Shown here: positions 7,117-55,903 of the stretch, piece after piece | How positions within the stretch are numbered: position 1 is the first letter of the stretch | Layout of the letters: the number at the start of each line of letters is the position of its first letter | From: a virus | Strand: one strand, 5' to 3' | DNA: 64,000 nucleotides | Virus record (IMG/VR): IMGVR_UViG_3300043436_005236 | Coordinates: 1 to 64,000 of that record | Translations under genes and position numbers: made by a program | The notes under the pieces: generated by a model | The model's input: the letters and a program-made list of their open reading frames with translations, nothing else | What the model was told of the DNA's origin: nothing | Databases searched by the model: none

Positions 7117-7127
7117 AATCGTAATAG

Positions 7128-8237: not shown

Positions 8238-8262
8238 ATCCTATTGTATTTATTTAATCGAT

Positions 8263-8685
8263 CTATGCTTCGTTGAGAATTTCCGGCCATGTATTTTTTA
8301 TATCTATAATATTGTCAGGAAGATCAATTTTTGTGACATCACGTAACGCAGCTTTGAGCGTTTTTATATTATTAATCTTTTCGCTATTGTCTTGTTCAAG
8401 AGCTAGCATAAATTTATAATCCAACTCTTTTAACTTTTTATTTCTTGCTACACGCCAACAATCTTTTTGTATTTGCTTAGCCTTAAGTATATTGATAGAC
8501 ACATGCATATTATCATCTATCTCCCACGCATCACGAAAATATCCATCCGGTAATGCTGAATCATCAATAATATTATACTTTGAACTAGCTGGTATAGTAA
8601 GAGCTATTACTTGATCTAGTGAGACACCCTCTGCTGGCGTGACGATACAAATTTCTTCTTCTGTTTTATATACTACTATATTCAC
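8263..8685 (-). CDS. Tail fibre assembly chaperone
   Basis: FRDAW...WRVARNKKLKELD...ALRDVT...WPEIL, typical Tfa-like chaperone; lies next to fibre genes. Confidence 0.7.
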   Translation of the reverse strand: MNIVVYKTEEEICIVTPAEGVSLDQVIALTIPASSKYNIIDDSALPDGYFRDAWEIDDNMHVSINILKAKQIQKDCWRVARNKKLKELDYKFMLALEQDNSEKINNIKTLKAALRDVTKIDLPDNIIDIKNTWPEILNEA

Positions 8686-8691
8686 AACATT

Positions 8692-9750
8692 TTAACTTCC
8701 AAACACAACAAAGCAGAACCCAGTTAGATTTTCTACTTCATTAGATTCGTGCGACCAGCAAATAAACTCAAAATAACTAGCTGTTTTCATTTTTACTAAT
8801 ATAAGATTTTCATCACCTCTATTAGCCTGCTTAGTATCGCCCCCTGCTTGACCGCTGTAAGCTGGAGCTTGTCCAAATACCGGATTATTATTACCCCTCA
8901 TATATGTATTTTGTACAATAACAGCATATTGATCATTCGCCATAGGCGTTGTAAATGTAACCCGGTAGCATCCTTTTGACTGCCATGTAACACTAGCGAA
9001 ATTATATCCCGTGGCAGTACTAAATGTCTGCGCGCCAGCTGTAAAATTATTAGTTTTAGCATAACCATACGACTTTGCAGCATTTGGAGCAGTAATACCA
9101 CTGGTTGAAGTAATTGTTTCCGCTGTAATATTTTTACCAAATATCGTACCATCTTTATTCATGTATGCTGCTAACGACCCTGCTTTACCAGCACCAAAAG
9201 ACCCACCATCAGAATAAAAATCAAAAGAAGTAACACCACCGCCCCAACTTGAAGGTTTTGTATATTTTGTTGCGTGAGTTGCTAGCTGCACGTTCATATT
9301 ACCTGTACTATCAACAGTTGTAAGCGGAATAAAATCTTCTGTTGTTCTATAATCAAATCCACCTATAGCAAATTGATCGCCACCTCCTCTAACATTATCA
9401 CCTATTACAACACGTATTTGTGACGAATCGACATCTACGTTTGCCCGCGTTATATACATAACATCAGTGTTATCAGAAAAACCAAACATTAGTTTTGGAT
9501 AACTTGACGCAGAAAGAGAGCGTATATTGCTATTTACTGGTGCGGTGTTAAGAACAATATCGTCATCTGTTCTAATTTTACCTGTAACGGTTATACCCTG
9601 TTTAGCGCGACCTATCTCCAAAGATGACTTATTACCATAACCATCATAAACGCTCTGCAACCCTGTAGCAGGCAGAGGTTCCCCGTTGACATGAAGAACG
9701 CTGGTATAGGTATCAGAAATATTAGTATTAGTTAATGATGCTGTTGCCAT
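8692..9750 (-). CDS. Tail fibre / receptor-binding protein
   Basis: 352 aa; C-terminal YNFASV...GCYRVTFTTPMANDQYAV fibre-tip motif; directly upstream of the chaperone. Confidence 0.65.
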   Translation of the reverse strand: MATASLTNTNISDTYTSVLHVNGEPLPATGLQSVYDGYGNKSSLEIGRAKQGITVTGKIRTDDDIVLNTAPVNSNIRSLSASSYPKLMFGFSDNTDVMYITRANVDVDSSQIRVVIGDNVRGGGDQFAIGGFDYRTTEDFIPLTTVDSTGNMNVQLATHATKYTKPSSWGGGVTSFDFYSDGGSFGAGKAGSLAAYMNKDGTIFGKNITAETITSTSGITAPNAAKSYGYAKTNNFTAGAQTFSTATGYNFASVTWQSKGCYRVTFTTPMANDQYAVIVQNTYMRGNNNPVFGQAPAYSGQAGGDTKQANRGDENLILVKMKTASYFEFICWSHESNEVENLTGFCFVVFGS

Positions 9751-16787: not shown

Positions 16788-16813
16788 TATAAATAGTTTG
16801 AGATTTATAAATA
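16788..16813 (+). promoter_or_regulatory. Two perfect T4-type late promoter boxes upstream of the glycosyltransferase operon
   Basis: TATAAATA at 16788-16795 and 16806-16813, matching the T4 gp55-dependent late consensus. Confidence 0.7.
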
Positions 16814-18069
16814 TGGCCAAAAAAAAATCACAGCCAACAATTTTTATACAAATTGCAGCGTATAGAGATCCACAATTGCAGCCTACAATAGAAGATTGTA
16901 TCTCAAAAGCTAAAGCTCCTAAAAATTTACGCTTTTGCATTGCATGGCAGCATGCTCCGGAAGATGTTTTACCTGAAGATTATTTTAATGACTCGCGATT
17001 TAAAATTATCGATATACCCTATCAAGAGAGTAAAGGCGCGTGCTGGGCGCGCAATCAAATTCAGCAGCATTATAACGGTGAAACATATACATTGCAGCTA
17101 GATAGTCACCATCGGTTTGTACAAGACTGGGATCAACAACTGATCGATATGCTTGAAGGTCTTAGAAAAAAAGGTCACAAAAAACCTTTGTTAACCGGTT
17201 ATATTTCAAGCTTTGACCCTGATAACGACCCAGCTGGCCGTGTTGATGCGCCGTGGAAGATGGATTTTGATAGATTTATACCAGAAGGTGCAATATTCTT
17301 CCTACCAGCTACAATACCAGCAGAGCAACGACACGAGCCCGTGCCTTCACGATTCTATTCAGCACACTTCTGTTTTACTGATGGTATTTTCTGTAAAGAA
17401 GTGCCACATGACCCCGAATATTACTTCCACGGTGAAGAAATATCTATTGCTGTACGAGCATTTACATGGGGCTATGATCTATTTCACCCCAATAAAGTTA
17501 TTGCTTGGCACGAATACACGAGAAAAGGTAGAACAAAGCAGTGGGACGATGACAAAGATTGGGGTATTCGCAATGAAAAATGCCATTTAAAGAACAGAAA
17601 GTTATTTGAGATGGATGGTGAGGTTCGTGATATAGATTTTGGTATATATGGATTCGGACCGGTAAGAACACTGCAAGAATATGAACACTATGCAGGTATA
17701 AGCTTTAAGAAAAGAGCTATTCAACGCGAGACATATAACCACATACCACCACCAAATCCACAATACAAGACGCAAGAAGAATTCGAAGCCTCGCTGCTTC
17801 ATATCTTTAAGCACTGTATTGATATTACCTATACGCAGGTACCTGAAAAGGATTATGAGTTTTGGGTTGTTGCGTTCCACGATGAAAAAGACGATACTCT
17901 TTATAGGAAAGATGCACATATTGATGAAATTAATAATATGATGCAGGATCCTGACGGGTATTGTAAAATTTGGAGAGACTTCCAAACAACCTCTAAACCA
18001 AAATATTGGGTTGTATGGCCATATAGCACATCAAAAGGATGGTGTGATAGAATAACCGGTAATTTATAA
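16813..18069 (+). CDS. GT60-family polypeptide alpha-GlcNAc transferase (Gnt1/Gnt2-like); start probably ATG 16813
   Basis: IFIQIAAYRDPQL, SKGACWAR, YTLQLDSHHRFVQDWD (DSH motif), FYSAHFCF, VPHDP..YFHGEEISIAVRAFTWGYDLFHP...WHEY are hallmark GT60 motifs. Confidence 0.85.
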   Translation: MAKKKSQPTIFIQIAAYRDPQLQPTIEDCISKAKAPKNLRFCIAWQHAPEDVLPEDYFNDSRFKIIDIPYQESKGACWARNQIQQHYNGETYTLQLDSHHRFVQDWDQQLIDMLEGLRKKGHKKPLLTGYISSFDPDNDPAGRVDAPWKMDFDRFIPEGAIFFLPATIPAEQRHEPVPSRFYSAHFCFTDGIFCKEVPHDPEYYFHGEEISIAVRAFTWGYDLFHPNKVIAWHEYTRKGRTKQWDDDKDWGIRNEKCHLKNRKLFEMDGEVRDIDFGIYGFGPVRTLQEYEHYAGISFKKRAIQRETYNHIPPPNPQYKTQEEFEASLLHIFKHCIDITYTQVPEKDYEFWVVAFHDEKDDTLYRKDAHIDEINNMMQDPDGYCKIWRDFQTTSKPKYWVVWPYSTSKGWCDRITGNL

Positions 18070-18072
18070 AAT

Positions 18073-19335
18073 ATGAAGATAGTTGTTTGTCAATATTACA
18101 CTTCAAATATTTCTTATGGTAAATTTTCTGAAGAAATTAATAAAAAATATTGTGAAGATAATGGTTATGTTTATTATCTTGAAAAAGATGGTAATAAAAT
18201 AAAAAATAAAATAGGTTCTCGTTCGTGTCATTGGTATAAACCTTTTTTAATTGAGGAAGTTTTTAATTCACATCCTGATTGTGAGTATATCTTATTCATG
18301 GATATTGATGCAGTTTTCTGTAATAATAAGAGACAAATTGAAGAATTTATTACTAATGACTTTAGTATATTAATGACTGAAGATCACGGACCATCACTAG
18401 TTAATTCTGGTGTTATGTTAATAAAAAATAATCAATTCTCTAAAGATTTTATAAAAGATTGGTGGAATATATGTGAAGAATATCCTTTGTATAAAGAAGG
18501 CTTGTGGCATGATCAAACATGTATTGGTTTATGGTATAACAGACAAGAAAATACTAATGAATTTAAAATAATTCCAAATGACGATTTTAACGCTAGAGAA
18601 TATAAATCCGATAAATTTATCTTCCATGCGTTTTCATATGGTATGTTACCCAATAGAACTATAGATTCAATCTATTACGACAAATTTAATATTGATAAAC
18701 AATTCCAAGATAAAAATTTATATGAGATTGGTGAATATTTTGGGACCGATAAACAATATCTTCACAACTATTACAACAGATTTTATCAAAAATTATTACA
18801 ACCGTATCAAGAAAAATGTGATATTTTAGAAATCGGTGTTTTAGATGGTGCGTCACTAAATGTTTGGAACGAATATTTTGATGAAGGGGTTATTCATGGT
18901 ATTGATATTAATAATTACCAATCAGATATTGAGAGGGTTAGGATGTTTAATGTAGACCAATCTAATGAAGATTCTTTATATGATTTCTCAAACAATGGAT
19001 TTATGTATGATGTAATTATTGATGATGGTTCTCATAAAATGAACGATGTTCAAATTACCGCACAGATTTTATTCGAGAATGTTAAATCGGGTGGTGTACT
19101 AGTAATTGAAGATTTACAAACATCGTTAGAGTGTAGAATGCCGTCAAAGGCGGTATTTGGCTGGGGGGACCCGACTAAAACAACAGCGTTAGACATGTTA
19201 AATAGTATTATTAATGGTAATCCATATACCGATTATAAAACAGAAAGGTGGGAATCTTTCCTAAACAATATAGAATCAATTCAAATATCTAACGATAGAG
19301 ACGATTCAATCTACGCAATTATTATAAAAAAATGA
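18073..19335 (+). CDS. GT34-like glycosyltransferase fused to class I SAM-dependent O-methyltransferase
   Basis: N-term KYCEDNGY, WYKP, ILFMDIDA (DxD), NSGVMLIKN, WHDQ; C-term GTDK..LHNY, ILEIGVLDGASL, GIDI, DVIIDDGSH, GGVLVIEDL. Confidence 0.8.
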   Translation: MKIVVCQYYTSNISYGKFSEEINKKYCEDNGYVYYLEKDGNKIKNKIGSRSCHWYKPFLIEEVFNSHPDCEYILFMDIDAVFCNNKRQIEEFITNDFSILMTEDHGPSLVNSGVMLIKNNQFSKDFIKDWWNICEEYPLYKEGLWHDQTCIGLWYNRQENTNEFKIIPNDDFNAREYKSDKFIFHAFSYGMLPNRTIDSIYYDKFNIDKQFQDKNLYEIGEYFGTDKQYLHNYYNRFYQKLLQPYQEKCDILEIGVLDGASLNVWNEYFDEGVIHGIDINNYQSDIERVRMFNVDQSNEDSLYDFSNNGFMYDVIIDDGSHKMNDVQITAQILFENVKSGGVLVIEDLQTSLECRMPSKAVFGWGDPTKTTALDMLNSIINGNPYTDYKTERWESFLNNIESIQISNDRDDSIYAIIIKK

Positions 19336-20279
19336 ATGCAATAGTATATCATATTTTTTGTGTTGGTGATTACTTAAATGTTGTAAAATCACAAGTAGAG
19401 AAATTAAAAGTATCAGGATTATATGATTGGTGCGATACTTTAGAGGTATCTTGTGTGGACTTAGAAGGTAAATATCAAGGTATTGATGAAATCTTTAATG
19501 GAATGAATAAAGTTAATTTATTCAAAACAAATCAAAACACTTACGAGTATTGGGGTATTAATAAAGTTTGGGAATTATCACAAGAAAATGATGGTAAAGT
19601 ATTTTATTTTCACGCGAAAGGTGTATCAAATACCTACAAAAATTTAGTAACCAAAGAAATTTCAAATTGGAAAGTTGAGGGTATTAAAATTTGGAGGGAT
19701 GCTTTAGAATATTACCTTATAGATAACTTTCAAAAATGTATTGATGATTTAAATGAACACGATACTTGTGGTATGACTTGTGTTGGTAATTGGTTTTGGG
19801 GTAATTTTTGGTGGGCTAATTTGTCATTTGTTAGAGGGAATGATAAACCTGTTCATGGAGATAGATGGTATTTTGAGAATTGGTTACATCATGCTAGACA
19901 TTATAAATCCAAAGAATATTTTCATTTTGAGTGGAACCCCTACTTTTCAAATTTACCAATAAATGCTTATATAGACTTAGAATTTTTTAAGAATAAAGAG
20001 ATTGAGGTGTTAAATGGTTTATTTGGTACAACAGGAATTCAATTAGACGAAGGGTATCCTTCAGAAATCCCGATACAACAAAATGATGTAACAGAACTAA
20101 TTGTTGATAATTTAAAAAGTAATAATGGTAAGTTTATTAATTTACGTGTGGATACTAACATTATGGGTGAACCAATTCATGATATGAGAAAATTTCTAAT
20201 TATGATGATTAAAATTGGTAGTGAAACCTATAGAATTGCATATAATGAAAACTTTAATGTAAGTTTAAAATTTGAGTAA
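19332..20279 (+). CDS. Putative glycosyltransferase-like protein with C-terminal lectin-like domain
   Basis: YHIFC, YFHAKGVS, GNFWWAN, DRWYFENW motifs seen in viral glycan-cluster proteins; C-term DVTELI...RVDTNIMGEP...KFL resembles small lectin-like modules; coupled overlap with the upstream gene. Confidence 0.5.
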   Translation: MNAIVYHIFCVGDYLNVVKSQVEKLKVSGLYDWCDTLEVSCVDLEGKYQGIDEIFNGMNKVNLFKTNQNTYEYWGINKVWELSQENDGKVFYFHAKGVSNTYKNLVTKEISNWKVEGIKIWRDALEYYLIDNFQKCIDDLNEHDTCGMTCVGNWFWGNFWWANLSFVRGNDKPVHGDRWYFENWLHHARHYKSKEYFHFEWNPYFSNLPINAYIDLEFFKNKEIEVLNGLFGTTGIQLDEGYPSEIPIQQNDVTELIVDNLKSNNGKFINLRVDTNIMGEPIHDMRKFLIMMIKIGSETYRIAYNENFNVSLKFE

Positions 20280-20282
20280 AAT

Positions 20283-21965
20283 ATGAATAAAAATATTACA
20301 ATAGTGACCGGTCTTTGGGATTTAGGTAGAGGGGACATGAATGGGTGGGGTAAAAGAGATTTTCAGCACTATAAAGATAAATTTTTTGAACTGCTTGAAA
20401 CAGATTGTCAATTATGTATATGGATTCCAAAAGAATTAGAAGATGAAGTTTTAAAAATTAGAGACAACAAGCCTACTAAGATTTTTATTAAAAATACTGA
20501 AGATTTTGAAGTGTGGAATCCTTTTTTTAATGACATTCAAAAAATTAGAGAAAATAATGATTGGAAAAACTTTGCTGGGTGGTTGCCCGAATCGCCGCAA
20601 GCAGCTTTAAAGTACTACAATCCAATGATGTTCACTAAATTCTTTATGCTGAATGATTCAGCTATTACTAATCCATTTAATAGTGAATATTTCTTTTGGA
20701 TCGATGGAGGATTAACAAATACTGTTAATGAAGGGTATTTTATTCATGATAATGTTTTAGATAATTTAGAGAACTATACTCGCTGTCATAATGATAAATT
20801 TATTCAAATTTCATACCCGTATGAGGGTAATGATGAAATTCATGGGTTTGAAAGAACAGCTATAGCTCGATATTGTAACACAGATTATGTTAATTATGTG
20901 TGTCGTGGTGGTTTTTTTGGTGGTAGTAAGGAAAACGTTCATAAAATGAACCAATCTTATTATTCTATAATGCACGATACATTAAAAGAGGGGCTAATGG
21001 GTGCAGATGAGTGTTTATTTACAATACTCTCCCACAGACATCCAGATTTAATACATAGATTCGAAATTAGCGGCAATGGTTTAGTGTGGCCATTCTTTGA
21101 AGAGCTCCTTAATTATAGTGACGACAAAATAAAGGGTAAAAAAATGCCCCTTGACACCTCAAATACAGCTCTATATGTTATTGGGTTCAACAGTCCAGCA
21201 CAATTTGAAACACTAATAACATCAATGTATTCATATGATGGGGATTTTATTAAAATGCCGAAAAAGTTCCTTTTAAATAATTCAACCGACTTATCAACAA
21301 CAGAAGAATACATCAGGTTGTGCCAAAAACACGGGTTTGAACATATTAAAAAGGATAATTTAGGTATTTGCGGTGGTAGGCAGTGGATAGCAGAGCATGC
21401 CGATGAAGAAGGATTTGACTTTTACTTCTTTTTCGAAGATGATATGTTTTTCTATCCCAAAGAAGGTGAAATATGTAAAAATGGCTTTAACAGACACATA
21501 CCTAATTTATATAAAAGCGCTCTACACATAATTAAACAAAATAATTTTGACTTTTTAAAGTTAAATTTTACAGAATTTTACGGAGATAACAGCACTCAGT
21601 GGTCGTGGTATAATGTACCTCAAAATATTAGGGAAAAATTCTGGCCTAACAACCCAAAATTACCTATTTCCGGTATTGACCCTAATGCCCCGAAAACAAA
21701 GTTCAATTTAATAAACATTTACAATAAAATACCATTTATTACTGGCGAAATATACTATTCTAATTGGCCTCAAGTTGTTTCTAGGCACGGAAACACAAAA
21801 ATGTTTTTAGATACAAAATGGACACACCCACACGAACAAACTTGGATGTCACATATGTTTCAATTGACCAAAGAGGATCAACTTACACCAGGCTTATTAC
21901 TTTTAACACCAACAGAGCATAATAGGTTTGACTTTTACGACGGTAAGTTACGAAAAGAGTGCTAG
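20283..21965 (+). CDS. HtrL/YibB-like glycosyltransferase fused to a GT-A (GT2-like) domain
   Basis: ITIVTGLWDLGR, NPFNSEYFFWIDGG, GGFFGG, ADECLF (HtrL-like); second domain NLGICGGRQW...FFFEDDMF. Confidence 0.7.
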   Translation: MNKNITIVTGLWDLGRGDMNGWGKRDFQHYKDKFFELLETDCQLCIWIPKELEDEVLKIRDNKPTKIFIKNTEDFEVWNPFFNDIQKIRENNDWKNFAGWLPESPQAALKYYNPMMFTKFFMLNDSAITNPFNSEYFFWIDGGLTNTVNEGYFIHDNVLDNLENYTRCHNDKFIQISYPYEGNDEIHGFERTAIARYCNTDYVNYVCRGGFFGGSKENVHKMNQSYYSIMHDTLKEGLMGADECLFTILSHRHPDLIHRFEISGNGLVWPFFEELLNYSDDKIKGKKMPLDTSNTALYVIGFNSPAQFETLITSMYSYDGDFIKMPKKFLLNNSTDLSTTEEYIRLCQKHGFEHIKKDNLGICGGRQWIAEHADEEGFDFYFFFEDDMFFYPKEGEICKNGFNRHIPNLYKSALHIIKQNNFDFLKLNFTEFYGDNSTQWSWYNVPQNIREKFWPNNPKLPISGIDPNAPKTKFNLINIYNKIPFITGEIYYSNWPQVVSRHGNTKMFLDTKWTHPHEQTWMSHMFQLTKEDQLTPGLLLLTPTEHNRFDFYDGKLRKEC

Positions 21966-21990
21966 TTTATTTCTCTGTTAAAGAACAGTG

Positions 21991-23544
21991 CTACTCAACT
22001 GGCGGATAAGGATTATACGGGTCAGTGCCTGCTTGAAACGCTAGCTGGTAGGGGTCTGTTTCGTATGTATATGGTCCAAAATATTCGTCCCATGCTGTGT
22101 CATAACGATAATATTCACTGCATGGATTAGAATAAGTGAATTGAGAAATAGACGGAAACAGGTCATCCCCTGTATAATATCTATCGTACGTGATAGACCG
22201 AGAATCGCCACCGGTTTGATAATTCCAATTGTCAAGTGATGCTTGTATAGTTCCGTACCATGTTCTAACCTCTTCGCCCTCAAGAACTGCAGAGACGCGT
22301 ACCCATGTACTATGTGTTTCATTTCGCGATCTAGATAAAGGGCCAGTGCATACGTTAGTCTCAGAACTCGTTGCCACTCGGTCAGATTCTGCTAATCCGA
22401 AATCTTTCCACGTCCATGTCGTTGTAAAAGAGTTAGGGTTTTGTGTAATATTATAAGTTACATTTTCTATTATTGTATAACTACCACGGTCTGACCAATT
22501 ATACGAATAATTATATGTAGTATAGCATCCTGGCAATCCATTATCCCATGTTCGGTTATCTGCACAAACACCATCTTTATTCGGACCTTCACATATAAAG
22601 GTATCTACCCGCTTTCTAGTTTTATAAAGTGTATTGTTATACCAATATCCAAGAGTCGCACCTCCAATAAAAACCTCATCGGTATTATCAGGACCACCAT
22701 AATTATCGAGATTAAGATCAGAAGGTAAAACCGCGCACATAGACAAAACCTGAGGCGTGGAAGTAGGTGTTGGTGTCTGCGTAAGCGTTTGTGTTGGTGT
22801 TAGTGTAGGTGTTAATGTAGGCGTCTGCGTAGGTGTCTGTGTGGGTGTTAGCGTTGGTGTAAGAGTCGGTGTTAGTGTGGGTGTAAGAGTCGGTGTTAGG
22901 GTGGGTGTCGATGTCTGTGTAGGTGTTAGCGTTGGTGTTTGTGTTAATGTCAGTGTGGGCGTTTGTGTTAGCGTTCGCGTAGGCGTAACAGTGCGTGTAG
23001 GTGTTTGTGTAGGTGTTTGTGTTGGTGTTAGTGTAGGTGTTGGAGTCGGCGTTAGTGTTTGTGTAGGTGTAGGTGTTGGCGTGCCAGTTACTGATGTCTG
23101 GGTTGGTGTTAGTGTAGGTGTTAATGTAGGCGTCTGCGTAGGTGTCTGTGTGGGTGTTAGCGTTGGTGTAAGAGTGGGTGTTAGTGTGGGTGTAAGAGTA
23201 GGTGTTAGCGTCGGTGTCAGTGTAGGTGTTTGTGTTGGTGTTAGCGTTGGTGTTTGCGTTTGAGTCAGTGTAGGTGTTTGAGTAGGCGTAACAGTGCGTG
23301 TAGGTGTCTGTGTCGGTGTTAGCGTTGGTGTTGGCGTCGGCGTAAGACAAGGAACAGACATGTAACATATTTTATCATACTTGTAGATATAGATAGTATA
23401 AACTCCTTCAATTACGCTTGATGTATACGTATAAGGTAATACCACATCACCAATAACAACCTGTGATGTATTAATACACGGATCGAAGAGAATATTAGCT
23501 GCTTCGCCCTCAAAGTTATTAGAAGTTATTATTACCGTTTTCAT
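21991..23544 (-). CDS. Mucin-like protein: small N-terminal domain, ~200-aa Thr-Pro stalk, Cys/aromatic-rich C-terminal domain
   Basis: (TPTL/TPTQ)n tract; C-terminal domain with several Cys and many Trp/Tyr; TAAATA at 23574-23579. Confidence 0.75.
22750..23345 (-). repeat. Thr-Pro repeat tract (TPT[L/Q/R])n
   Basis: Degenerate 6/12-bp period; 74-bp identical blocks at 22793-22866 and 23102-23175. Confidence 0.95.
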
Positions 23545-23599
23545 TATACGTATTTTCTAAACCACGTTGTTGTTATTTAATCATTAGGTAGGAGTATAA

Positions 23600-26563
23600 T
23601 TACGTTACAACCATCCCATTGCTGTATGTACCTTCTGGTGTATGTACTGTTTCAAAGTACGGAGTTTTCCAATCAGATTTTAAGTAACAAGCAAGAGCTC
23701 CACTAGGTCCAGCGGTATTAGCAGCCGCGGTAATTTCCCATCCAATATCAGTCATTTTCATAATAACAGAACCTATGTTCGGGCAGGGATCTCCTGCACT
23801 GTTGTAAGCGGCGAAGTTTCCATTCCACGCACAACTACCCAGTTCGCGGTACACTCGTACGCTGTAAGATCTAGCAAAATATGGTGGATTGTCTGTCCAG
23901 CTAACAGTATATTGAGAGTTGAAGAAATCATAAACATAACCCGCAATAAGATGAGTTTGGAAAGTTTCTACACCATCGCGGTAAACTGCCCAGCCTCCAG
24001 ATCGGAGGAACACACCATTGAAGCCCTCGCCGTAACCAAGGCCAAGACCCGGTAATATTACCTTTTCTCTGACTACACCACCTGAAAGCGGTGTAAGTAA
24101 CCCAACCGCAGAAGGTAAATGATCGTATTCTGCAGTCCATTGAACATAGCCAGCTGTTTCATCATCTGGATCCGGATACAGTGGAACAGAATAACCAGGG
24201 TACCAACCACAATTCTCTAACACCGGCGTCGGCGCTGGTGTAGCAGTATACGTCGGTGTCGGCGTCGGTGTTTCTGTTAATGTCGGAGTTGGTGTCGGTG
24301 CTTCTGTTAATGTCGGTGTTGGCGTCAGCGTTGGTGCTGGTGTTTCTGTTAATGTAGGAGTTGGCGTCGGCGTCGGCGTCGGTGTCGGCGTCGGTGTTTC
24401 TGTTAATGTCGGAGTTGGCGTCGGTGTCGGCGTCGGTGTTTCTGTTAATGTAGGAGTTAGCGTCGGTGTTTGTGTTAATGTCAGTGTAGGCGTTTGTGTT
24501 TGTGTTCGTGTGGGTGTAACAGTGCGCGTAGGCGTCATCGTAGGTGTAACAGTACGCGTAACTGTTTGAGTCGGTGTTAGTGTAGGTGTCGGCGTCGGTG
24601 TTTCTGTTAGTGTTGGTGTTGGGGTTGGGGTCGGAGTACCAGTTACAGAGGTTTGCGTAGGTGTGAGGGTAGGTGTTAATGTCTGTGTAGGTGTTGATGT
24701 CCGTGTGGGTGTTTGAGTAAGTGTTAGTGTAGGTGTCTGAGTGAGCGTCAGTGTAGGTGTTAGCGTCGGTGTTAGTGTAGGTGTTTGTGTTGGTGTTAGC
24801 GTTGGTGTTTGTGTTAATGTCAGTGTAGGCGTTTGTGTTTGTGTTTGTGTAGGTGTAACAGTACGCGTAGGCGTCATCGTAGGTGTAACAGTACGCGTAA
24901 CTGTTTGTGTTAACGTTGGTGTCTGTGTTAATGTAGGAGTTGGCGTCGGTGTCGGCGTCGGTGTTTCTGTTAATGTAGGTGTTTGTGTTGGTGTTAGCGT
25001 TGGTGTTAGCGTTGGTGTTTGTGTTTGTGTTTGTGTAGGTGTAACAGTACGCGTAGGTGTTTGTGTAGGCGTAACAGTGCGCGTAGGTGTAGGTGTTGGC
25101 GTGCCAGTTACTGATGTCTGAGTGAGCGTCAGTGTAGGTGTTGATGTCCGTGTAGGTGTTAATGTCCGTGTGGGTGTTTGAGTAAGTGTTAGTGTAGGTG
25201 TCTGAGTGAGCGTCAGTGTAGGTGTTTGTGTAGGCGTAACAGTGCGCGTAACTGTTTGTGTTAGTGTAGGTGTAGCTGTTGATGTTGATGTTTGTGTCGG
25301 TGTCGGTGTCAATATAACAGGTTCAAAATCGCAAGTTATGTTTGTAAGCGTTGGCGTAGCTGTAGGTGTTTGTGTAGGTGTCTGTGTAGGTGTTAGCGTT
25401 GGTGTTTGTGTTGGTGTTTGTGTTGGTGTTTGTGTTGGTGTTTGCGTTGGCGTCCGTGTAGGTGTAACAGTGCGCGTAGGCGTCATCGTAGGTGTAACAG
25501 TACGCGTAGGTGTCATAGTAGGCGTAACAGTCTGTGTTGGCGTAGGCGGCGGTGTTGTTCCAACAGTAGCAGTTTGCGTAGCTGTCGGAGTTACTGTCTG
25601 CGTTACCGTCTGCGTTAGCGTTGGTGTTTGCGTCGGTGTTAGCGTTGGTGTTTGCGTCGGTGTTAATGTTGGTGTTTGTGTTGGAGTTGGTGTCTGTGTT
25701 AGTGTCGGTGTTAATGTTTGCGTTAGCGTTGGTGTCAGCGTTAGTGTTGGTGTTGGCGTAGCAGTACTTGTTACAGTAGGTGTAGGTGTAGGAGCAGGCA
25801 GAACAGAAATAGCTGTAAAGCTCGTAGCGCTCCCCCTCGTATTACCTACCAAAACAGTATATGTAGTGTTTATTAAAGGGGAAACTACATACATACCACA
25901 TAGTGGTATGTTTCTCGTCGAAAAATCACCACGAGCAATCTCTGCATTTATACTCTTCCATGAAAGGATAGCCGAACCTCCATATTCGATTACTGGTCGC
26001 GATGTAAAGAGCTCTACTTCTGGTAAAAGCTTAACAGGTACATTGCTTAAAGAACCTACATATGTTTGCCTGTTATTATTTCCTTCAAAATTAAAAAAAG
26101 TAAAATTACCTTCTGAAGGAATAATTTGCGTGTTTATTATATCAAAATTTCCTATTTCGTCATAAAAGGAATTTTGAAATATGTTAATAGGCTGAATTAT
26201 ACCAACTGTCGCGCCATTATTATATACAAAAAGAAATTGTGCTGTTAGAGGCGCGTTATAACTACTCAACGTATTGTAATATCTATGTGTATACTGAGTC
26301 GCAATACTACCACCTATTTTACCGTTTACGATTTCATTAAAAATAGACTGCTCTTTATAGTCAAAAATAAGATCCTTTTGAAAAAACTCCTTACTACCAT
26401 CCCCCCAGTCGATTTTCAAAAACAAAACATCATATGACTCTTCATTTACCCCTGTTAAAACAAAATTTACAGCAGAGCTGCCTTTTATATCGAGCGGTGC
26501 CTTAAAAATAACATTGCTACCCTCTACAACAGGTAAGTCGTAATAGATATTAGCGTAATTCAT
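23600..26563 (-). CDS. Mucin-like virion protein: PKD/Ig-like N-terminus, ~520-aa Thr-Pro stalk, Cys-containing C-terminal domain
   Basis: IDWGDGS (PKD-like), [13 protein letters not shown]...TTYTV (Ig-like); [16 protein letters not shown] repeats; coupled to the 1450-aa gene. Confidence 0.75.
24225..25800 (-). repeat. Thr-Pro repeat tract with higher-order duplicated blocks
   Basis: Repeated [18 protein letters not shown] and LTETPTPTP units; 38 bp at 25083-25120 identical to 23063-23100 in the neighbouring gene. Confidence 0.95.
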
Positions 26564-29500
26564 AGGACAAAGCTTCCATTATTTATAATAGCAGTGCCGA
26601 TAATGCTATATGAAGAGAGAAACACTGTAGAAGTAGAATAAAAATCAGAAGTTCGTATTGTTTTATCGTGTTTAAAGTATTTACCTGACTCAAACTCTAC
26701 ATCGCCGTTATTATTAATAAAAAACGCGTAATCAAACAAGTGAAACAGGTTGTTATTGTCAACACCTATAAAAGTTATCTTATATGTATCATTATAACTA
26801 TTGTATACCAGTTGCGGCTTGTGAATACCGACAATATTAAAATTACAATCTTCTGTAAAGCTAGATTGAAGTGAAAATAGTGTTGAGAGACTTTGATTTC
26901 GCGAATCTAACGGGAATAGCTTCTGATATGTGTTGTCTTTTATGTTATATTGATAAATGGATGGTATAAGTGCTTTATTGTTACCAGCAGAAGTATACGC
27001 AACCCCGGTATAGACTACAAAAGTATCTTCTTTTTGAGTAGTTTCAACCGTATAATCGTCATAATCATAAAACGCAAATATACCATCATCATTTTGCGTT
27101 GTAATTGGTATTTCTATTTGTGTTTCGATAGCACCCGAACCACCTGTAGTAGCTAATTCATAATCTACCATATACATAAATGGTGAAACAATGCAGAAAG
27201 TTATTGTTTTATCTTCTTCATTAAAGAATCGATTAGAAAACCTACTTATTGGCGAGTCAGGTAATAGCTTAAACACAGTATTTTTTGTGCTTGGAGGTGA
27301 ATAGTTATTATCCTCATAATGTATTTTATCAAATATAAGATAATTTTCTGTTTCAATAATAATTGTATCGTATACTACATCAAAATCTTTCGGTGTATGG
27401 TAAATTTCTGCTTTTATATTTTGTGAGTATTTATTAAACACAATGCTCAGTGATGTAGATAGAGGAAGCGAAAGGGAATGCGCCTGATTTTTAACAAATA
27501 GCTTACCTTCAAGAGATTTTTTAACTGTTTGTGATAGATATCCACTTTGTGAAGATAGAGGCGACAGTTTTGTTTTTGAAGACTCAGCAACCACATCGTA
27601 TAAATAATAATTACTGCCATATTTATAATCGTTGGTAAGTGTAAGATCATCTGTAAAATATCCACAATCATAATCTTCCACATTACGACTTGATAACATA
27701 GACCGTACATTTATTGTAAAATCGGCGTTTGTCTGCTCCGTTTCAATAGCAAAACCTGACTGCGCCAGTATATCCTCTAACGACAATTCATCAGTAATAT
27801 ATTCAAATGTTGGTATTGTAGAGGATGTTCTTGCTAGCCCACCCTCTGCGAGGGTTGAATAAAAGTAATTTTTCGGAGAAGGGTAATCTTTTTCATCCGC
27901 ATGCAACGGATCAGGCAATGCATCACTATCTAAAAAGGTAAACCTACCACCATCCCGAAATGCCGCTGCAATATTCCGCGCAGCTTGTGAGAAATCTTGA
28001 TAGGGTAAAAATTCTCTAAAATAAAGTGTAAGGGGCGATCCGGACAGTGTAAAGGTAGGCGCGTTATTGAAGTTGACCGTCAGCGCTGAAATTCCTGTAC
28101 GTATAGTGCTACCACTTATATCATCTGTATTATAATTAAAATTATACCCCTCGTTAACATCATAAAAAACATGACCATCTATTAAATTGTTAACGATTTT
28201 AGCATCAGCTACTTCACTTATTTCTCTAAATGTTTGACCAAACTGATCTTTAAATAGTGCATACTCATTACCATAAATATCATACTGTACTTTAGTTATA
28301 TAACCGCGATTATACAAATCAGAAAAATTTAAATTAAGGCTAGTCTCATCAACGATTGTTTTTTCTATATTTTGTTCACGCGCATAATACGGTGTAAACG
28401 TCTGCTCACTTGTACTTACAAGCGGGTCACCCTGCGCAAATCCGAGTGAAGACGTAGCTACATCCGATCTATAATCTTCAATAAATACTATTGGATAATC
28501 AGGCTGTGAATTTATCGATACATTACCGTAAACAGCAGGATCAGGGAAGATATATATCTTTTGTTCTGTTAGTTTATCAGGGTTAATTGAATATGTAGAA
28601 TTATTGCTGTTAAGTTGAAAAAGACCTGTTTTATCCGGCTTAAAGAAAAGGCCTATATTACGAAGCATGTTAACTGATTCCTTTAATCGGGGCGATAACT
28701 TTGTATTAAAAGACGAGACAACACCACCTGCACCACCACCTGCACCGCCACCTAACCCGCTTACTCCACCACCTGCACCACCACCTAACCCGCTTACTCC
28801 ACCACCTGCACCTAAACCGCCACCTAGCCCGCTTACTCCACCACCTGCACCTAAGCCGCCACCTAAACCACCAATATTATTAGAAACAAAAGCAGTAGGT
28901 ATATAATTATTATTTGTATTAATACCTAACGCGCTCTGTACATTAGAATTATTAACATTTGTTCCAGGAATAATAGTACCTAGCGGACTACCACTTTGTA
29001 TCCCTGCATAATCACCTCCTATATAAGGTATACCGACATTTATAGTTTCAACACCTTGTGAACCAACACCTGGACTGCCTGCTCCCGAACCACCACCTAC
29101 AAATCCATCAAACCCTAATGTTCCATTTAGCGCGTTATAATCTGAATTATTAATATTGTTAAGATTTAGATCCTGATTGTTTATCGCTATAGGGTCTAGA
29201 TTTACCACTTCACCGTTTATTCCTACGAATTGATCTATATAGTCTATATCAGGTTGAATCTGCGCTGGTGTTGTAGGTGTATTAGGCAGCTGTAAGTTAG
29301 GTATATTTGCCCATGGCTGCTCTGCTTTAAAAAGAATTCCTGTTACAGGTTGCGTCCCTGTTGTATCAATATAATGAAAATCAACTCCGATATATTTTGA
29401 TATTAATTTGCGTTTAAGTTCAGCTAACTCATCAGAAGGTATTCCATCTTTTAATTCCTGATCCTGTCTAATCAAATCAATAGGGTTAGCAGGATCACAA

Positions 29501-33041: not shown

Positions 33042-34895
33042 TTAGACTGTTTCAACTACTATACTATTTGCAAGTTTAGATATTTCGTAAAAATAACCAA
33101 ATTGAAAGCGAGATAATTGTATATTTTGCGACGTACAAAATATATCGCTTGTTTCGTAAAGAGGATTCCACACTACACAACTTATAAGAGGCACCTCATA
33201 ATTTACATCTGTACGCCTCGTTGCAATACCCACAACACCCGGTATATTGAGTATATTGTTGCTTATCTTAGTCAAATCTACAATCGATCCTAGCTTTATA
33301 TCTTCAAACGCCTGTTTAAATATTTTTAAGACAGTATTCTTAATAGAAACATCATTAATAGCAATATTTGTATCTCGTTTAATTACAAGCTTGGTGTAAT
33401 CTTTTAACTCAACGCACGGCACTTCATTTATAATATTAACACCTAGGTTAAACGCTTTATATACAGGATCTGACGGTACAATATTGTGTGTAATATCTTT
33501 TATTAAATTACATTCATTAAGCAGTAATTGTTTTTGTGCAGAATTTAAATAGTTTGGTATCCTTTCATTTAGTATTGTTGCTTGAGCAGGGACAGCAAAT
33601 ATATATACATTATTAAACTGCGTCGAATTGGAGTAGTTTACCTGATTAATGAGCACTCTACTATTATTATTAGGTTTAGTCAGACCAATACTATAAAAAT
33701 ACTTAAGATACTGACTTGCATGCTCGTCGTTAGATAAAACTGAAATAGATTTAACTACATTATTAAAATTTTTAGATACAAAGCTTTCATAATCGTCACG
33801 AGTCACTAGACGATTTTGTAATGAAAACATTTTCGGGGCATTTGTCCTTATATCCGCTACACTTTCTGCAGGCACTACAGGTGTTGCGTCGCTAGGGTTA
33901 TTAATAACAATATTTTCTGTGTTTAACGGTGTAATAAAAGTAGTAGTATCAGGATACACATCAGCTAATATCTGATCATAGGTCGGTGTTGTAAACACGA
34001 TAAAAGAAGCTCCTTGCAAAGTATTAGCACTTACAACACCAGCAATATTATCCGAAACAATATAATATATTTGTACAAGATCACCCTCTTTTAGTTTTTT
34101 ACCGTTCAGCCCATTACCGAATTTAAATTCATAATTTCCATATTCATTTAAACGCTTTTCATATCTTGTCCCCGTCGATGATTCAAGATATAACGACGAT
34201 GTTTCTTTCCATTCTCGCCAGACACCGGTATCAATACTTCTAACAAAAATAGTAAACGAATTATCTGCAATAAAGGGTATATTATCTAAGTTATCCAATA
34301 CACGGTCAGGGGCCGGTCGTTCGTTCACTATAGATACCGTTTCGAATGGTTCTCCAGTTGCAGTATAGAGTGGATATTCTACAGGAGACCCCTGATATAA
34401 CGTAGTATTATCCGCTGCTACACGTTCGAAATCATTATTCGTCTTTTCAAAAGAGATATCTCTTACGCTTGCATACTTTGTATTGTTTTTTGTTACGTAT
34501 GAGAGCTTAGGTATTGTATAAAGGTTAGGAGAAAGATTTGAAAGAGCAGATAATGAAATAGTTGCGAGCGATGTCTGCCGACCGATAGGCTTATAGTTAA
34601 TATTTGATACTAACTTGTTTATATTTTCATAAAGTGTCGCGGTTGTAAACGTAGATTCAGATGACGTTGTGTTTAAATAAAACAATAACACATGATACAT
34701 ATACGCAACAATATCAATAAATGCGTTTATGTTTGAACCCTCAAAGTTTTGATCCTGAAAAACACCACTTTCATTTAACCTCTTTATAATTAAATTCTTG
34801 AGAGTCGTAGCATCAAACGTTGCATATGCATCATGCGAGAGATTATACTCAGTAAAGTTACTAATATTCATATTTTTAGACAAAAGTGTATCCAT
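33042..34895 (-). CDS. gp6: Baseplate wedge subunit, T4 gp6-like
   Basis: FQDQNFEGSNI...YLNTTSSESTFTTATL; FKFGNG..GK; ESVADIRTNAP...QNRLVTRDDYE. Confidence 0.9.
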   Translation of the reverse strand: MDTLLSKNMNISNFTEYNLSHDAYATFDATTLKNLIIKRLNESGVFQDQNFEGSNINAFIDIVAYMYHVLLFYLNTTSSESTFTTATLYENINKLVSNINYKPIGRQTSLATISLSALSNLSPNLYTIPKLSYVTKNNTKYASVRDISFEKTNNDFERVAADNTTLYQGSPVEYPLYTATGEPFETVSIVNERPAPDRVLDNLDNIPFIADNSFTIFVRSIDTGVWREWKETSSLYLESSTGTRYEKRLNEYGNYEFKFGNGLNGKKLKEGDLVQIYYIVSDNIAGVVSANTLQGASFIVFTTPTYDQILADVYPDTTTFITPLNTENIVINNPSDATPVVPAESVADIRTNAPKMFSLQNRLVTRDDYESFVSKNFNNVVKSISVLSNDEHASQYLKYFYSIGLTKPNNNSRVLINQVNYSNSTQFNNVYIFAVPAQATILNERIPNYLNSAQKQLLLNECNLIKDITHNIVPSDPVYKAFNLGVNIINEVPCVELKDYTKLVIKRDTNIAINDVSIKNTVLKIFKQAFEDIKLGSIVDLTKISNNILNIPGVVGIATRRTDVNYEVPLISCVVWNPLYETSDIFCTSQNIQLSRFQFGYFYEISKLANSIVVETV

Positions 34896-35361
34896 CGTTA
34901 TTTAATACACCTTTTAAAGATATATTAAAAACATTTAAAGTTGGGATAGTTATTTCAATAGTTATTATGTATTCCATATCCTCAGGAGCAGCAACAATAT
35001 CAACGCTCTCGACTGTTATACGAGGCTCTTGTTCTCCCAAGCCATATAATATACGCTCGCCAATAAAAAACGCTCTTGTTTCTGTAATCGGGTCAAATAA
35101 AAACTCTCGTAAGTCAAGACCAAAGAGCGGATTTAATAGTTTTTGACCTGGTGATGTTGTAAGAATATTTTTAATAGAATTAATAATTGCAGAACTATCA
35201 TATATTGCAGCAATATCTTTGTTGGTTTCTTTGCTATGGAGCTCCGGTCTAGTAATATTAGACTGCTTAATATCAAACAATACATCCTTATAGAGGTAAC
35301 CTGCTTTGAGAGCTTCCTCTATGCGCGTACTAGGTTTAATAATATCGAGCTTAATAGCCAT
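34876..35361 (-). CDS. gp25: Baseplate wedge/sheath initiator, gp25-like
   Basis: AIINSIKNILTTSPGQKLLNPLFGLDLREFLFDP...EPRITV. Confidence 0.9.
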   Translation of the reverse strand: MAIKLDIIKPSTRIEEALKAGYLYKDVLFDIKQSNITRPELHSKETNKDIAAIYDSSAIINSIKNILTTSPGQKLLNPLFGLDLREFLFDPITETRAFFIGERILYGLGEQEPRITVESVDIVAAPEDMEYIITIEITIPTLNVFNISLKGVLNNDGYTFV

Positions 35362-53567: not shown

Positions 53568-53598
53568 AAAATTATTTATAGCTAGCTTAATTATTTTT

Positions 53599-55895: not shown

Positions 55896-55903
55896 TATAA
55901 ATA
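55896..55903 (+). promoter_or_regulatory. T4-type late promoter
   Basis: TATAAATA 5 nt before ATG 55909. Confidence 0.7.

Follow-up and report, generated by a model that had tools for sequence, protein, structure and literature searches.

Why should an uncultured lake-water phage carry, inside its baseplate/fibre block, four predicted soluble sugar-transferase genes beside two open reading frames (ORFs) with Thr-Pro stalks? An operon of sugar transferases led by a GT60-family gene lies next to fibre-like Thr-Pro proteins, and the phage therefore probably sugar-coats proteins of its own particle. With moderate confidence, we read the four plus-strand genes as a cassette for cytoplasmic protein O-glycosylation with Thr-Pro stalks as preferred acceptors, here those of two proteins of 517 and 987 aa (TP517 and TP987). 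The features of the locus within the window (the whole stretch of 64,000 nt that was analysed) are:

5446–8237: Mtd_N/Collar fibre proteins of the baseplate/fibre module around the operon
16813–21965, plus strand: four-gene operon
16798 or 16813 to 18069, plus strand: ORF1 (ORF list); from 16813, a GT60-family (PF11397) predicted soluble glycosyltransferase of 418 aa, by profile match
18073–19335, plus strand: ORF2 (ORF list), two-domain enzyme; GT34-like or PBCV-1 A064R-D1-like GT-A domain (about aa 1–200) and class I SAM sugar O-methyltransferase of TylE/MycE type (C-terminal half, about aa 215–382)
19332–20279, plus strand: ORF3 (ORF list), DUF8361-like; GT-A/nucleotide-diphospho-sugar transferase fold (aa 1–204) and Cys-free SUEL (rhamnose-binding) lectin-like C-terminal domain (aa 220–295)
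20283–21965, plus strand: ORF4 (ORF list), dual GT-A enzyme; HtrL_YibB domain (aa 1–273) and GT2/GT13-like GT-A domain (aa 291–550)
21991–23544, minus strand: TP517
23600–26563, minus strand: TP987
33042–34895: gp6-like protein of the same baseplate/fibre module
34876–35361: gp25-like protein of the same module
Same module: 697-aa PKD protein

The junctions within the operon measure 3 nt, −4 nt (a 4-nt overlap) and 3 nt, and these, the ORF coordinates and the gp25-like and gp6-like neighbours agree with a sequence-only reading which had described a tightly coupled four-gene operon, antisense within a tail/baseplate block. The gp6-like protein had no match among cultured phages. The operon and TP517 are convergent, with their stop codons facing each other 25 nt apart, and the start of TP987 overlaps by 4 nt the stop of an upstream 1450-aa ORF of the structural module. 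The same reading had placed two perfect late boxes at the head of the operon. Three copies of the motif lie at the ends of the locus:

16788–16795, plus strand: TATAAATA box 1, candidate late-type promoter 25 nt ahead of the ATG of GT60
16806–16813, plus strand: TATAAATA box 2, overlapping the ATG at 16813
26580–26587, minus strand: TATAAATA box, 17 nt ahead of the start of TP987

T4-type late promoters carry this motif at −10 of late genes, in genomes that also encode a late sigma factor of the gp55 type. Box 2 was ruled out as a promoter for the ATG at 16813, since the two overlap, and only box 1 can act for that start. The boxes at 16788 and 26580 (minus strand) stand at plausible promoter distances, and inspection showed about 7 copies on the correct strand at most 60 nt ahead of a long ORF; across the window the motif is no commoner than chance predicts (20 found, 15.2 expected), and the motif was not conserved upstream of GT60 in relatives (2/59). 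Both copies ahead of the operon are thus present as described, but the claim of two late boxes was overstated, given the overlap of one with the start codon and the lack of conservation of the motif ahead of GT60 in relatives.

ORF1 matched PF11397 with an E-value of 1.8e-70 in a profile search (238.6 bits, against a cut-off of 21 bits), spanning profile positions 1–44 and 93–351 over the catalytic domain. Residues D97-S98-H99, H233 and D245-D246 were invariant in 27 phage and bacterial GT60 homologues, and DxH is the metal/nucleotide-sugar motif of enzymes of the GT27/GT60 type. A C-terminal extension (about aa 305–418) is also conserved and has no assigned family, and the N-terminus, read by eye, has no hydrophobic segment, from which the enzyme appears soluble. 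Homologues are scarce among cultured phages, with PF11397 found in 4 of 50,697 records (XacN1, Xoo-sp13, Stenotrophomonas CM1 and RAS14, at 47–50% identity), and among 301 genomes from one order of Bacteroidota, 3 carried the family. Sugar and acceptor specificity are not readable from the GT60 sequence.

Profile, solved-structure and fold searches bore out the architectures proposed earlier for all four enzymes. The N-terminal half of ORF2 matched PF05637 (GT34; E 1.3e-13, 51.7 bits against a 23-bit cut-off) and, among solved structures, a PBCV-1 capsid-glycan glycosyltransferase (2p6w, 1.3e-4) and GT34 xyloglucan xylosyltransferases (2e-3), while residues 216–382 matched sugar O-methyltransferases (8ia9, E 1.5e-15; 3ssm, E 6.5e-14); ORF2 also matched the methyltransferase family phrog_21658 (1e-21). 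The model of ORF3 (pLDDT 93) has an N-terminal GT-A fold by structure comparison (Z about 13), in which the DxD motif is absent and H94-x-K96 is conserved instead. Homologues of ORF3 mostly follow a GT34 domain in the same chain. A profile of 28 of its homologues matched SUEL lectins (5h4s, 1.1e-3; 2zx0, 5.3e-3) on every lectin repeat, with YG and GDP..G..K.L aligned; of the hallmarks of rhamnose-binding lectins (YGR, DPC and KYL motifs and conserved cysteines), the cysteines are absent, and the C-terminal domain is a putative lectin domain. ORF4 was modelled with a pLDDT of 90.7 and folds as two GT-A domains, the first (residues 1–273) resembling retaining-type GT6/GT15/GT24 enzymes and A64R (Z 11–13) and the second (residues 291–550) B4GALNT1, POMGnT1, GnT-I and TarS (Z 13–15.6). 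Matches to the whole ORF4 chain included LARGE1, CHSY3-CHPF, K4CP, PmHS2 and Mimivirus R699, and the only residues seen as invariant were W139/D141 in the N-terminal and E385-D386-D387 in the C-terminal domain. GT60 and ORF4 form the conserved core of the cassette and occur together in nearly all relatives, in some of which a single chain of about 1,090 aa unites the GT34, methyltransferase and ORF3-type domains.

The two minus-strand proteins have the same three-part layout:

23371–23544, minus strand: TP517 N-terminal small domain (aa 1–58)
22738–23370, minus strand: TP517 Thr-Pro stalk (aa 59–269, 211 aa; 46% Thr, 22% Pro)
21994–22737, minus strand: TP517 C-terminal tip, orphan and aromatic-rich (aa 270–517)
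25817–26563, minus strand: TP987 N-terminal globular region (aa 1–249)
24206–25816, minus strand: TP987 Thr-Pro stalk (aa 250–786, 537 aa; 47% Thr, 21% Pro)
23603–24205, minus strand: TP987 C-terminal tip, orphan (aa 787–987)

The measured stalk lengths and Thr contents fit the earlier description of an operon converging on two ORFs with Thr-rich stalks of about 200 and 520 aa. Both stalks follow a strict T-x-T-x period with Thr at every second residue, and a T-P-T-x-T-P-T codon pattern occurs 77 times on the 74-kb contig, each time within TP517 or TP987, the reversed control pattern giving 0 matches on that contig. No family or homologues were found for the globular parts of either protein, so that membership of the virion has to be argued from position rather than kinship: the surrounding baseplate/fibre module and the 4-nt overlap, together with a fibre-like hypervariability of the TP517 tip, make TP517 and TP987 candidate virion proteins. 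Most differences between near-identical phages fall in fibre genes and in the tip of TP517, which is the main polymorphic spot of the locus and varies between and within lake samples; single samples contained two tip alleles side by side, although 4.1 kb of the operon was identical. Such polymorphism is as might be expected of a domain in contact with the host. Among the runs listed as RNA, none contained more than about 3% of the words of the stretch.

Co-occurrence of GT60 with Thr-Pro proteins had been named beforehand as a test, and it proved positive in both directions and again in bacterial chromosomes. A Thr-Pro ORF lies within 10 kb of GT60 in 66 of 80 related viral loci. After dereplication of these loci to 44 clusters for position counts, a Thr-Pro ORF was found directly upstream of GT60 (position −1) in 19/44 (43%), versus 14/338 (4%) at distant positions, with other flanking positions at 9/43 (−2) and 13/76 (+5/+6), and 25 of the 44 clusters having none at −1. 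The Fisher p-value for position −1 is 7e-12, from clusters that are related to one another, so that the positional signal may in part reflect synteny by descent and not repeated association. Grouped by their globular parts, the 127 Thr-Pro ORFs at most about 10 kb from GT60 make up at least 23 families, which indicates that it is the stalk, and not a particular protein, that stays near GT60. In the reverse direction, 19 large viral contigs were picked solely for a TPTxTPTxTPT pattern, among the matches listed, and 11 of them carry PF11397. Finally, the Bacteroidota chromosomes of Jiulongibacter sediminis and an Arcticibacterium MAG carry GT60 together with HtrL/GT-A and a gene for a protein of about 530 aa, directly adjoining a divergent Thr/Ser-Pro protein with a twin-arginine-like N-terminus.

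The linkage is not obligatory, as is seen both from XacN1 and RAS14 and from Thr-Pro phages that lack GT60, and this leaves room for another explanation, in which the targets of the cassette are a glycan of the host envelope or different proteins of the fibre or baseplate, the Thr-Pro tracts serve as flexible spacers that stay unmodified, and the adjacency reflects a shared fibre module. In XacN1 and RAS14, the GT60-HtrL/GT-A core lies beside baseplate and giant fibre genes, and no Thr-Pro ORF was found in its flanks of about 9 kb or in the XacN1 giant-fibre region, so the enzymes need not act on such stalks. Moreover, viral contigs very commonly contain Thr-Pro repeats, the cassette was present in only 5–6 of 80 short Thr-Pro loci (among the matches listed), four complete Thr-Pro-bearing viral contigs had no PF11397, and relatives have further Thr-Pro loci 40–100 kb from GT60. 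We nevertheless consider this explanation doubtful, as the enrichment drops sharply from −1 to more distant positions of the same loci and stays even though the neighbours exchange their globular parts, the otherwise rare PF11397 recurs in the contigs selected for Thr-Pro among the matches listed, and the pairing is seen again in bacterial chromosomes, outside any phage fibre module.

A second alternative keeps the stalks as acceptors, with GlcNAc added in the manner of Skp1/Gnt1 to 4-hydroxyproline of the Pro-rich repeats and not to Thr. It is in line with the Pfam description of PF11397, which was built around the Skp1 hydroxyproline GlcNAc-transferase, with the apparent solubility (by eye) that the phage GT60 shares with Gnt1, and with stalks of 21–22% Pro, but the strictly periodic residue is Thr and not Pro, and a search for prolyl hydroxylases of the PF13640 type gave matches in control genomes but none in the 74-kb contig or in three relatives, of which one is 100% complete. 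This search covered phage genomes and a host hydroxylase could still supply the activity; overall we regard modification of hydroxyproline as very improbable. That the operon would hypermodify phage DNA by glycosylating hydroxymethylated bases is more improbable still, for the C-terminal GT-A domain of ORF4 does match TAGT (E 7.5e-5 to 2e-4, weak and below cut-off) and phrog_842, a beta-glucosyl-HMC alpha-glucosyltransferase (3.6e-5), but these matches reflect general GT-A resemblance and stay under the curated cut-off, the structural neighbours of ORF4 are protein and polysaccharide glycosyltransferases, the complete relative G001 has no gene of the thymidylate-synthase/hydroxymethylase family (control genomes matched), and the cassette genes lie within a structural module and adjoin a Thr/Ser-Pro protein in bacterial chromosomes. 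Both alternatives had been named in advance as findings that would speak against Thr glycosylation, and neither gained support.

Our proposal of a cassette acting on Thr-Pro stalks starts from what is directly supported: gene architecture, enzyme families and folds, the conserved proximity of Thr-Pro ORFs, seen in phages as well as in two genomes of Bacteroidota, and tip polymorphism. From these we infer a glycan, its sugar and acceptor residue, the place of the two proteins in the virion, and an order of initiation, extension and capping. GT60 would start the chain on threonines of the stalk, and the analogy with its family makes alpha-GlcNAc, taken from UDP-GlcNAc, the most likely first sugar. 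ORF4, the dual GT-A enzyme (HtrL plus GT2/GT13-like), may then add the next sugars, possibly as alternating units, although polymerase activity of ORF4 is pure conjecture. The variable middle genes, ORF2 (GT34/A064R-like plus O-methyltransferase) and ORF3 (GT-A-like plus lectin-like), would tailor and cap the chain, and the lectin-like domain of ORF3 may hold the enzyme on an already glycosylated stalk. The product would be an extended, protease-resistant and hydrophilic stalk, which would hold a rapidly evolving globular tip away from the baseplate/fibre region.

No publication describing a phage GT60 operon beside Thr-Pro stalk proteins was found, and the proposal is best placed against systems that share parts of it. 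XacN1, a phage of Xanthomonas, and RAS14 are cultured jumbo phages. The XacN1 cluster (ORF334-ORF330; also in Xoo-sp13 and the Stenotrophomonas phages CM1 and RAS14) likewise has GT60 followed by an HtrL/GT-A fusion homologue (38–40%) beside baseplate and giant fibre genes, but its middle genes differ, with a carbamoyltransferase instead of the GT34, methyltransferase and lectin-GT domains, and its examined flanks lack the Thr-Pro ORF. Chlorovirus PBCV-1 builds and methyl-caps its capsid glycan with soluble multidomain glycosyltransferases, of which A064R combines two GT domains and a methyltransferase (PMC9614988). The phage likewise encodes its own glycosyltransferases, and the N-terminal domain of ORF2 matches the structure of A064R-D1 (2p6w) and is fused to a sugar O-methyltransferase; the PBCV-1 glycans, however, are N-linked to a folded capsid protein, whereas the presumed acceptors of the phage cassette are O-sites on long disordered repeats. 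Mycobacteriophages also modify their own virion proteins with phage-encoded glycosyltransferases (Freeman et al. 2023, cited in PMC12619734). Their glycans lie at the C-termini of capsid and tail-tube subunits, the enzymes belong to other families, and the system includes neither GT60, a dual GT-A enzyme nor mucin-like repeat acceptors.

The protist GT60 enzymes of Dictyostelium and Trypanosoma cruzi start mucin-type O-glycans by placing GlcNAc on Ser/Thr-rich mucin domains, and they lack the ricin-type lectin domain of GT27 enzymes (PMC8724618). The phage GT60 shares PF11397 and the conserved DxH with these and with Skp1 Gnt1, and adjoins Thr-rich repeats. It differs in being encoded by phage and a few Bacteroidota, in its apparent solubility, compared with a Golgi type II membrane protein, in its conserved extension of about 110 aa without an assigned family, and in that its activity is predicted. 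In the serine-rich-repeat adhesins of Gram-positive cocci, O-GlcNAc-type glycosylation is started in the cytoplasm on Ser/Thr repeats by GtfA/B and extended stepwise by enzymes of the same locus (PMC7948813). A fibrillar repeat protein with a globular binding region, and initiation followed by same-locus extension, are common to these adhesins and to the phage proposal, but the former are cellular adhesins exported by accessory Sec and not phage proteins. GtfA/B are GT-B enzymes, of another family than the phage GT60. ORF4, finally, resembles LARGE1, K4CP/CHSY3-CHPF and PmHS2 in carrying two GT-A domains in one chain and aligns with them over both, but the domain orientation differs (rmsd about 20 Å over both domains) and there is no sequence similarity to these enzymes; the dual GT-A proteins ColGalT1 and R699 are not known to be polymerases. 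The mucin-like domain of alpha-dystroglycan bears an O-glycan that LARGE1 extends.

Four tightly coupled genes converge on two Thr-Pro ORFs in the window, as the sequence-only reading had proposed, and the ORF coordinates bore this out. The operon, the Thr-Pro proteins and the structural genes around them are as follows:

16813-18069, + strand, ORF1, GT60 glycosyltransferase
18073-19335, + strand, ORF2, GT34-like domain and O-methyltransferase
19332-20279, + strand, ORF3, GT-A-like and lectin-like domains
20283-21965, + strand, ORF4, HtrL/GT-A protein
21991-23544, − strand, TP517, Thr-Pro protein of 517 aa
23600-26563, − strand, TP987, Thr-Pro protein of 987 aa
26560-30912, − strand, structural-module protein of 1450 aa, upstream of TP987
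33042-34895, gp6-like gene of the structural block
34876-35361, gp25-like gene of the structural block
5446-8237, Mtd_N/Collar fibre proteins, further along the structural block
697 aa, PKD-domain protein of the structural block

The junctions from ORF1 to ORF4 measured, in order, 3 nt, a 4-nt overlap and 3 nt, the convergent ORF4 and TP517 genes are 25 nt apart from stop to stop, and the TP987 gene overlaps the stop of the upstream 1450-aa gene by 4 nt. The 1450-aa protein contains long Gly-rich low-complexity tracts, including GTG/LGG repeats, and no Pfam or PHROG family was found for it. No convincing terminator was found between ORF4 and TP517, and terminator-like matches within the Thr-Pro repeats were rejected as artefacts of the repeat sequence. 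Both TATAAATA boxes previously read as late promoters are present ahead of GT60 (at 16788 and 16806), but the second overlaps the GT60 ATG and thus is unable to serve it, the motif is not more frequent in the window than expected by chance (20 found versus 15.2 expected), and it stands upstream of GT60 in only 2/59 relatives. Several copies lie directly upstream of long ORFs, TP987 among them, and a function as late promoter is plausible for the window's phage only, since the motif is not kept upstream of GT60 in the relatives. Three genes have a copy of TATAAATA 0–5 nt from their ATG (53573-53580, − strand; 55896-55903, + strand; 16806-16813, + strand). A promoter with a leader of normal length would not fit in this distance, and these copies may belong to an A/T-rich start context or indicate leaderless transcripts.

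The viral contig, from IMG/VR, is 74 kb long with an estimated completeness of ~35% (CheckV), and the window covers its first 64 kb. DNA comparison with 50,697 cultured phage records did not detect a close relative, nor did the gp6-like baseplate protein have a protein match in these records, and the label 'T4-like' was dropped on these grounds. Near-identical sequence is present in lake-water metagenomes, with three runs from three studies containing 86–95% of the words of the stretch, and at least part of it was found in runs of 17 studies; among the runs listed, none on record as RNA holds it.

The domain descriptions proposed earlier for the four enzymes were all supported by profile searches, matches to solved structures and AlphaFold models. 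ORF1 belongs at the sequence level to the PF11397/GT60 family (238.6 bits); D97-S98-H99, H233 and D245-D246 do not vary among 27 homologues from phages and bacteria, and no hydrophobic segment was seen when its N-terminus was read by eye. No family was found for its conserved C-terminal extension, sequence searches with GT60 and ORF4 gave no solved relative, and an NCBIfam search added only YibB. ORF2 combines a GT34-type GT-A domain (PF05637, 1.3e-13), with as best solved relatives the plant xyloglucan xylosyltransferases and 2p6w (1.3e-4), which is domain 1 of the PBCV-1 capsid-glycan enzyme A064R, and a class I methyltransferase domain, with as best solved relatives the macrolide sugar O-methyltransferases 8ia9 (1.5e-15) and 3ssm (6.5e-14). 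ORF3 had no Pfam match in the local library and was grouped in the ESM Atlas with DUF8361, a family found in phages and giant viruses; most of its 142 homologues are fused behind a GT34 domain. In its AlphaFold model (pLDDT 93.3), residues 1-204 adopt a GT-A/nucleotide-diphospho-sugar transferase fold (Z ~13), in which H94-x-K96 is conserved in place of a DxD motif. Residues 220-295 match each repeat of rhamnose-binding (SUEL-type) lectins with an ORF3-family profile, with the YG and GDP..G..K.L signatures aligned, and we refer to this putative domain as lectin-like only, given the borderline E-values (1e-3) and the lack of the cysteines.

ORF4 matched HtrL_YibB and, weakly, TAGT, and was modelled as two GT-A domains (pLDDT 90.7). 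Residues 1-273 resemble the retaining enzymes BoGT6a, UGGT, Kre2p/Ktr4p and A64R (Z 11–13), and residues 291-550 resemble B4GALNT1, POMGnT1, GnT-I and TarS (Z 13–15.6), while the whole chain aligns with the two-domain LARGE1, CHSY3-CHPF, K4CP, PmHS2, LH3/ColGalT1 and Mimivirus R699. E385-D386-D387 is invariant, and from the model the HtrL family appears here to be a GT-A domain. In some relatives, GT34, methyltransferase and ORF3-type domains are joined with a further C-terminal domain in a single protein of ~1,090 aa (L051:4053-7313, L053:2951-6223, L054:11296-14568 and L057:3775-7035), a fusion reminiscent of the three-domain A064R of PBCV-1.

The long stalks, proposed to be about half Thr, were confirmed in both facing proteins, with a Thr-Pro tract of 211 aa in TP517 (residues 59-269, T 46%, P 22%) and of 537 aa in TP987 (residues 250-786, T 47%, P 21%), and Thr at every second position in both. 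The codon pattern for T-P-T-x-T-P-T had 77 matches on the whole contig, all within TP517 and TP987, and none in the reversed control. Both proteins consist of a globular part, the stalk and a globular tip, and both are encoded within the fibre/baseplate block. Their globular parts matched no Pfam family even at E 5 and had no paralogue in the window, and the two tips, when compared, were not related. The TP987 N-terminal region had no homologue in the near-length class and its tip gave no ESM Atlas lead, while the TP517 tip had only three matches among 1.8 billion representatives, one being a 76%-identical fragment. Short-read contigs from the lake metagenomes break inside both tracts. Over the tracts (22656-23307 and 24286-25915), contig depth was 3–6 times the flanking level and many matches were partial; repeats of this kind are plentiful in co-occurring organisms or phages, and disrupt short-read assembly.

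The same phage was assembled a second time from a different sample (L003); the two assemblies are 98.9% identical over 19 kb, and their differences cluster in the TP517 tip (with 56 in 22000-22500) and fibre genes (8000-9500). The latter, an Mtd_N fibre gene region (L003:20-2042), is ~90% identical against 98.9% for the rest, and forms a second hypervariable spot. Two alleles of 22089-22404 coexist in two lake metagenomes, differing at 31–33 positions in ~300 nt, where the operon is identical over 4.1 kb. A diversity-generating retroelement is not indicated for the tip, because the substitution spectrum is not adenine-specific. The variation fits a putative receptor- or surface-binding tip under diversifying selection. 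Together with the layout of TP517 and TP987 and their position in the block, it is indirect evidence that the two may be host-contact fibres, and they are candidate virion proteins at most.

Scanning viral contigs for GT60 yielded 146 relatives, and 80 loci were retained (59–77% identity, plus L003 at 100%). The conserved core, GT60 with the HtrL/GT-A fusion, was present in 74/82 loci (78 kept viral contigs, L003 and three regions from phages XacN1 and RAS14), with variable middle genes (GT34/methyltransferase in 12–15 loci, ORF3 type in eight). The predicted co-occurrence of GT60 with Thr-Pro proteins was found in both directions: a Thr-Pro ORF lay within 10 kb in 66 of the 80 loci, and among 19 large contigs selected solely by the TPTxTPTxTPT pattern, 11 carried PF11397 somewhere, a family otherwise rare (4/50,697 cultured phages; 3/301 genomes of one Bacteroidota order). 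Viral contigs contain this codon pattern very often, going by the matches listed, and the cassette was present in only 5–6 of 80 short loci chosen for it. After dereplication to 44 clusters, Thr-Pro ORFs were concentrated at the borders of the cassette, with 19/44 directly upstream of GT60 (position −1), 9/43 at −2 and 13/76 at +5/+6, versus 14/338 at distant places (three or more genes upstream, seven or more downstream). As the clusters are related, part of this signal may be inherited gene order. By their globular parts the 127 Thr-Pro ORFs fall in at least 23 families, and the globular domains of TP517 and TP987 occur in no other locus except L003; the constant feature next to the cassette is the stalk. 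The globular modules on Thr-Pro proteins adjacent to GT60 vary among relatives, and include Laminin_G_3/ConA-like, DUF5122 beta-propeller and FGE-sulfatase-like ones (L012:5458-9372, L043:1835-8161, L025:16934-20281). In many relatives, Thr-Pro proteins encoded directly downstream of the HtrL/GT-A gene are headed by a ~134-aa N-terminal domain (L017:9939-11717, L048:12677-14482, L016:17260-18681, L069:13694-14731 and others), which has no Pfam family and is absent from the window.

Taken with the enzyme families, this co-occurrence makes it moderately probable that the cassette glycosylates the Thr-Pro stalks. The link is not universal, however, as four complete Thr-Pro-bearing contigs lack GT60, and no Thr-Pro ORF was found in the ~9-kb flanks of the core in XacN1 and RAS14. 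Whole relatives have one to six Thr-Pro loci each, some 40–100 kb from GT60. Cultured carriers of the cassette exist, namely Jiulongibacter sediminis and, as sole cultured phages, XacN1, Xoo-sp13, RAS14 and CM1, in which the core lies beside baseplate and giant fibre genes. Were DNA the substrate instead, the GT-A similarity to TAGT and phrog_842 would be in keeping, but this was sub-threshold only, and no thymidylate-synthase/hydroxymethylase-family gene was found in the complete relative. A TET/JBP search matched nothing, in the controls as well, and carries no weight either way. Hydroxyproline as acceptor is disfavoured, with no PF13640 prolyl hydroxylase found in the contig or in three relatives (one complete).

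The closest cellular GT60 homologues are from Bacteroidota (57–61% identity), and J. sediminis and an Arcticibacterium MAG have a cluster of GT60, a gene of ~530 aa and HtrL/GT-A, directly adjoined in both by a divergent Thr/Ser-Pro protein (L089:6947-7813 and L090:6660-7640, both − strand). These proteins have an N-terminal twin-arginine-like motif, NRRLA(L/I)(R/K)ELFLGSS, and a conserved C-terminal globular domain of ~70 aa; the N-terminus suggests Tat export of a protein that would be glycosylated in the cytoplasm. In J. sediminis, the Thr/Ser-Pro gene is flanked by two GT60 genes, the one on the far side being a shorter paralogue with 30% identity (L089:5978-6865, − strand, corresponding to G004:C26:770300-771172).

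We consider it a rather unlikely scenario that GT60 and the dual GT-A enzyme are the core of a previously undescribed proteoglycan-type system that Bacteroidota share with their large phages. GT60 would prime stalk threonines, on which the dual GT-A enzyme would polymerise an alternating disaccharide, like LARGE1 or glycosaminoglycan synthases; the variable middle genes would cap the chain, for example with a methylated deoxyhexose, and the lectin-like domain of ORF3 would read the growing coat, giving a phage with polysaccharide-carrying bottlebrush fibres and hypervariable tips.

Mucin-type O-glycosylation has so far been treated as a eukaryotic trait (GT27/GT60), and a GT60-led stalk system, if true, would extend it to bacteria and tailed phages. 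To our knowledge, virion self-glycosylation by phage-encoded enzymes is experimentally established only in mycobacteriophages, and among larger viruses in chloroviruses and mimiviruses. Such a system would also account for the Thr-Pro tracts that are so frequent in the structural proteins of large aquatic phages, supply the HtrL/YibB family, modelled here as a GT-A glycosyltransferase domain, with a function, and place glycan coats among the factors that determine how lake phages adsorb, how stable they are and how well they resist grazing or enzymes. Searches of the literature on mucin-like phage proteins, HtrL, DUF8361 and the occurrence of GT60 in phages turned up no account of it; the 'moraphage' paper describes four core GT groups in large aquatic Bacteroidota phages (PMC12619734). 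The proposed system resembles the GT60 mucin-type initiation of protists (PMC8724618), and the cassette can be likened both to chlorovirus self-glycosylation, with its GT-methyltransferase enzyme (PMC9614988), and to the cytoplasmic glycosylation of serine-rich-repeat adhesins (PMC7948813).
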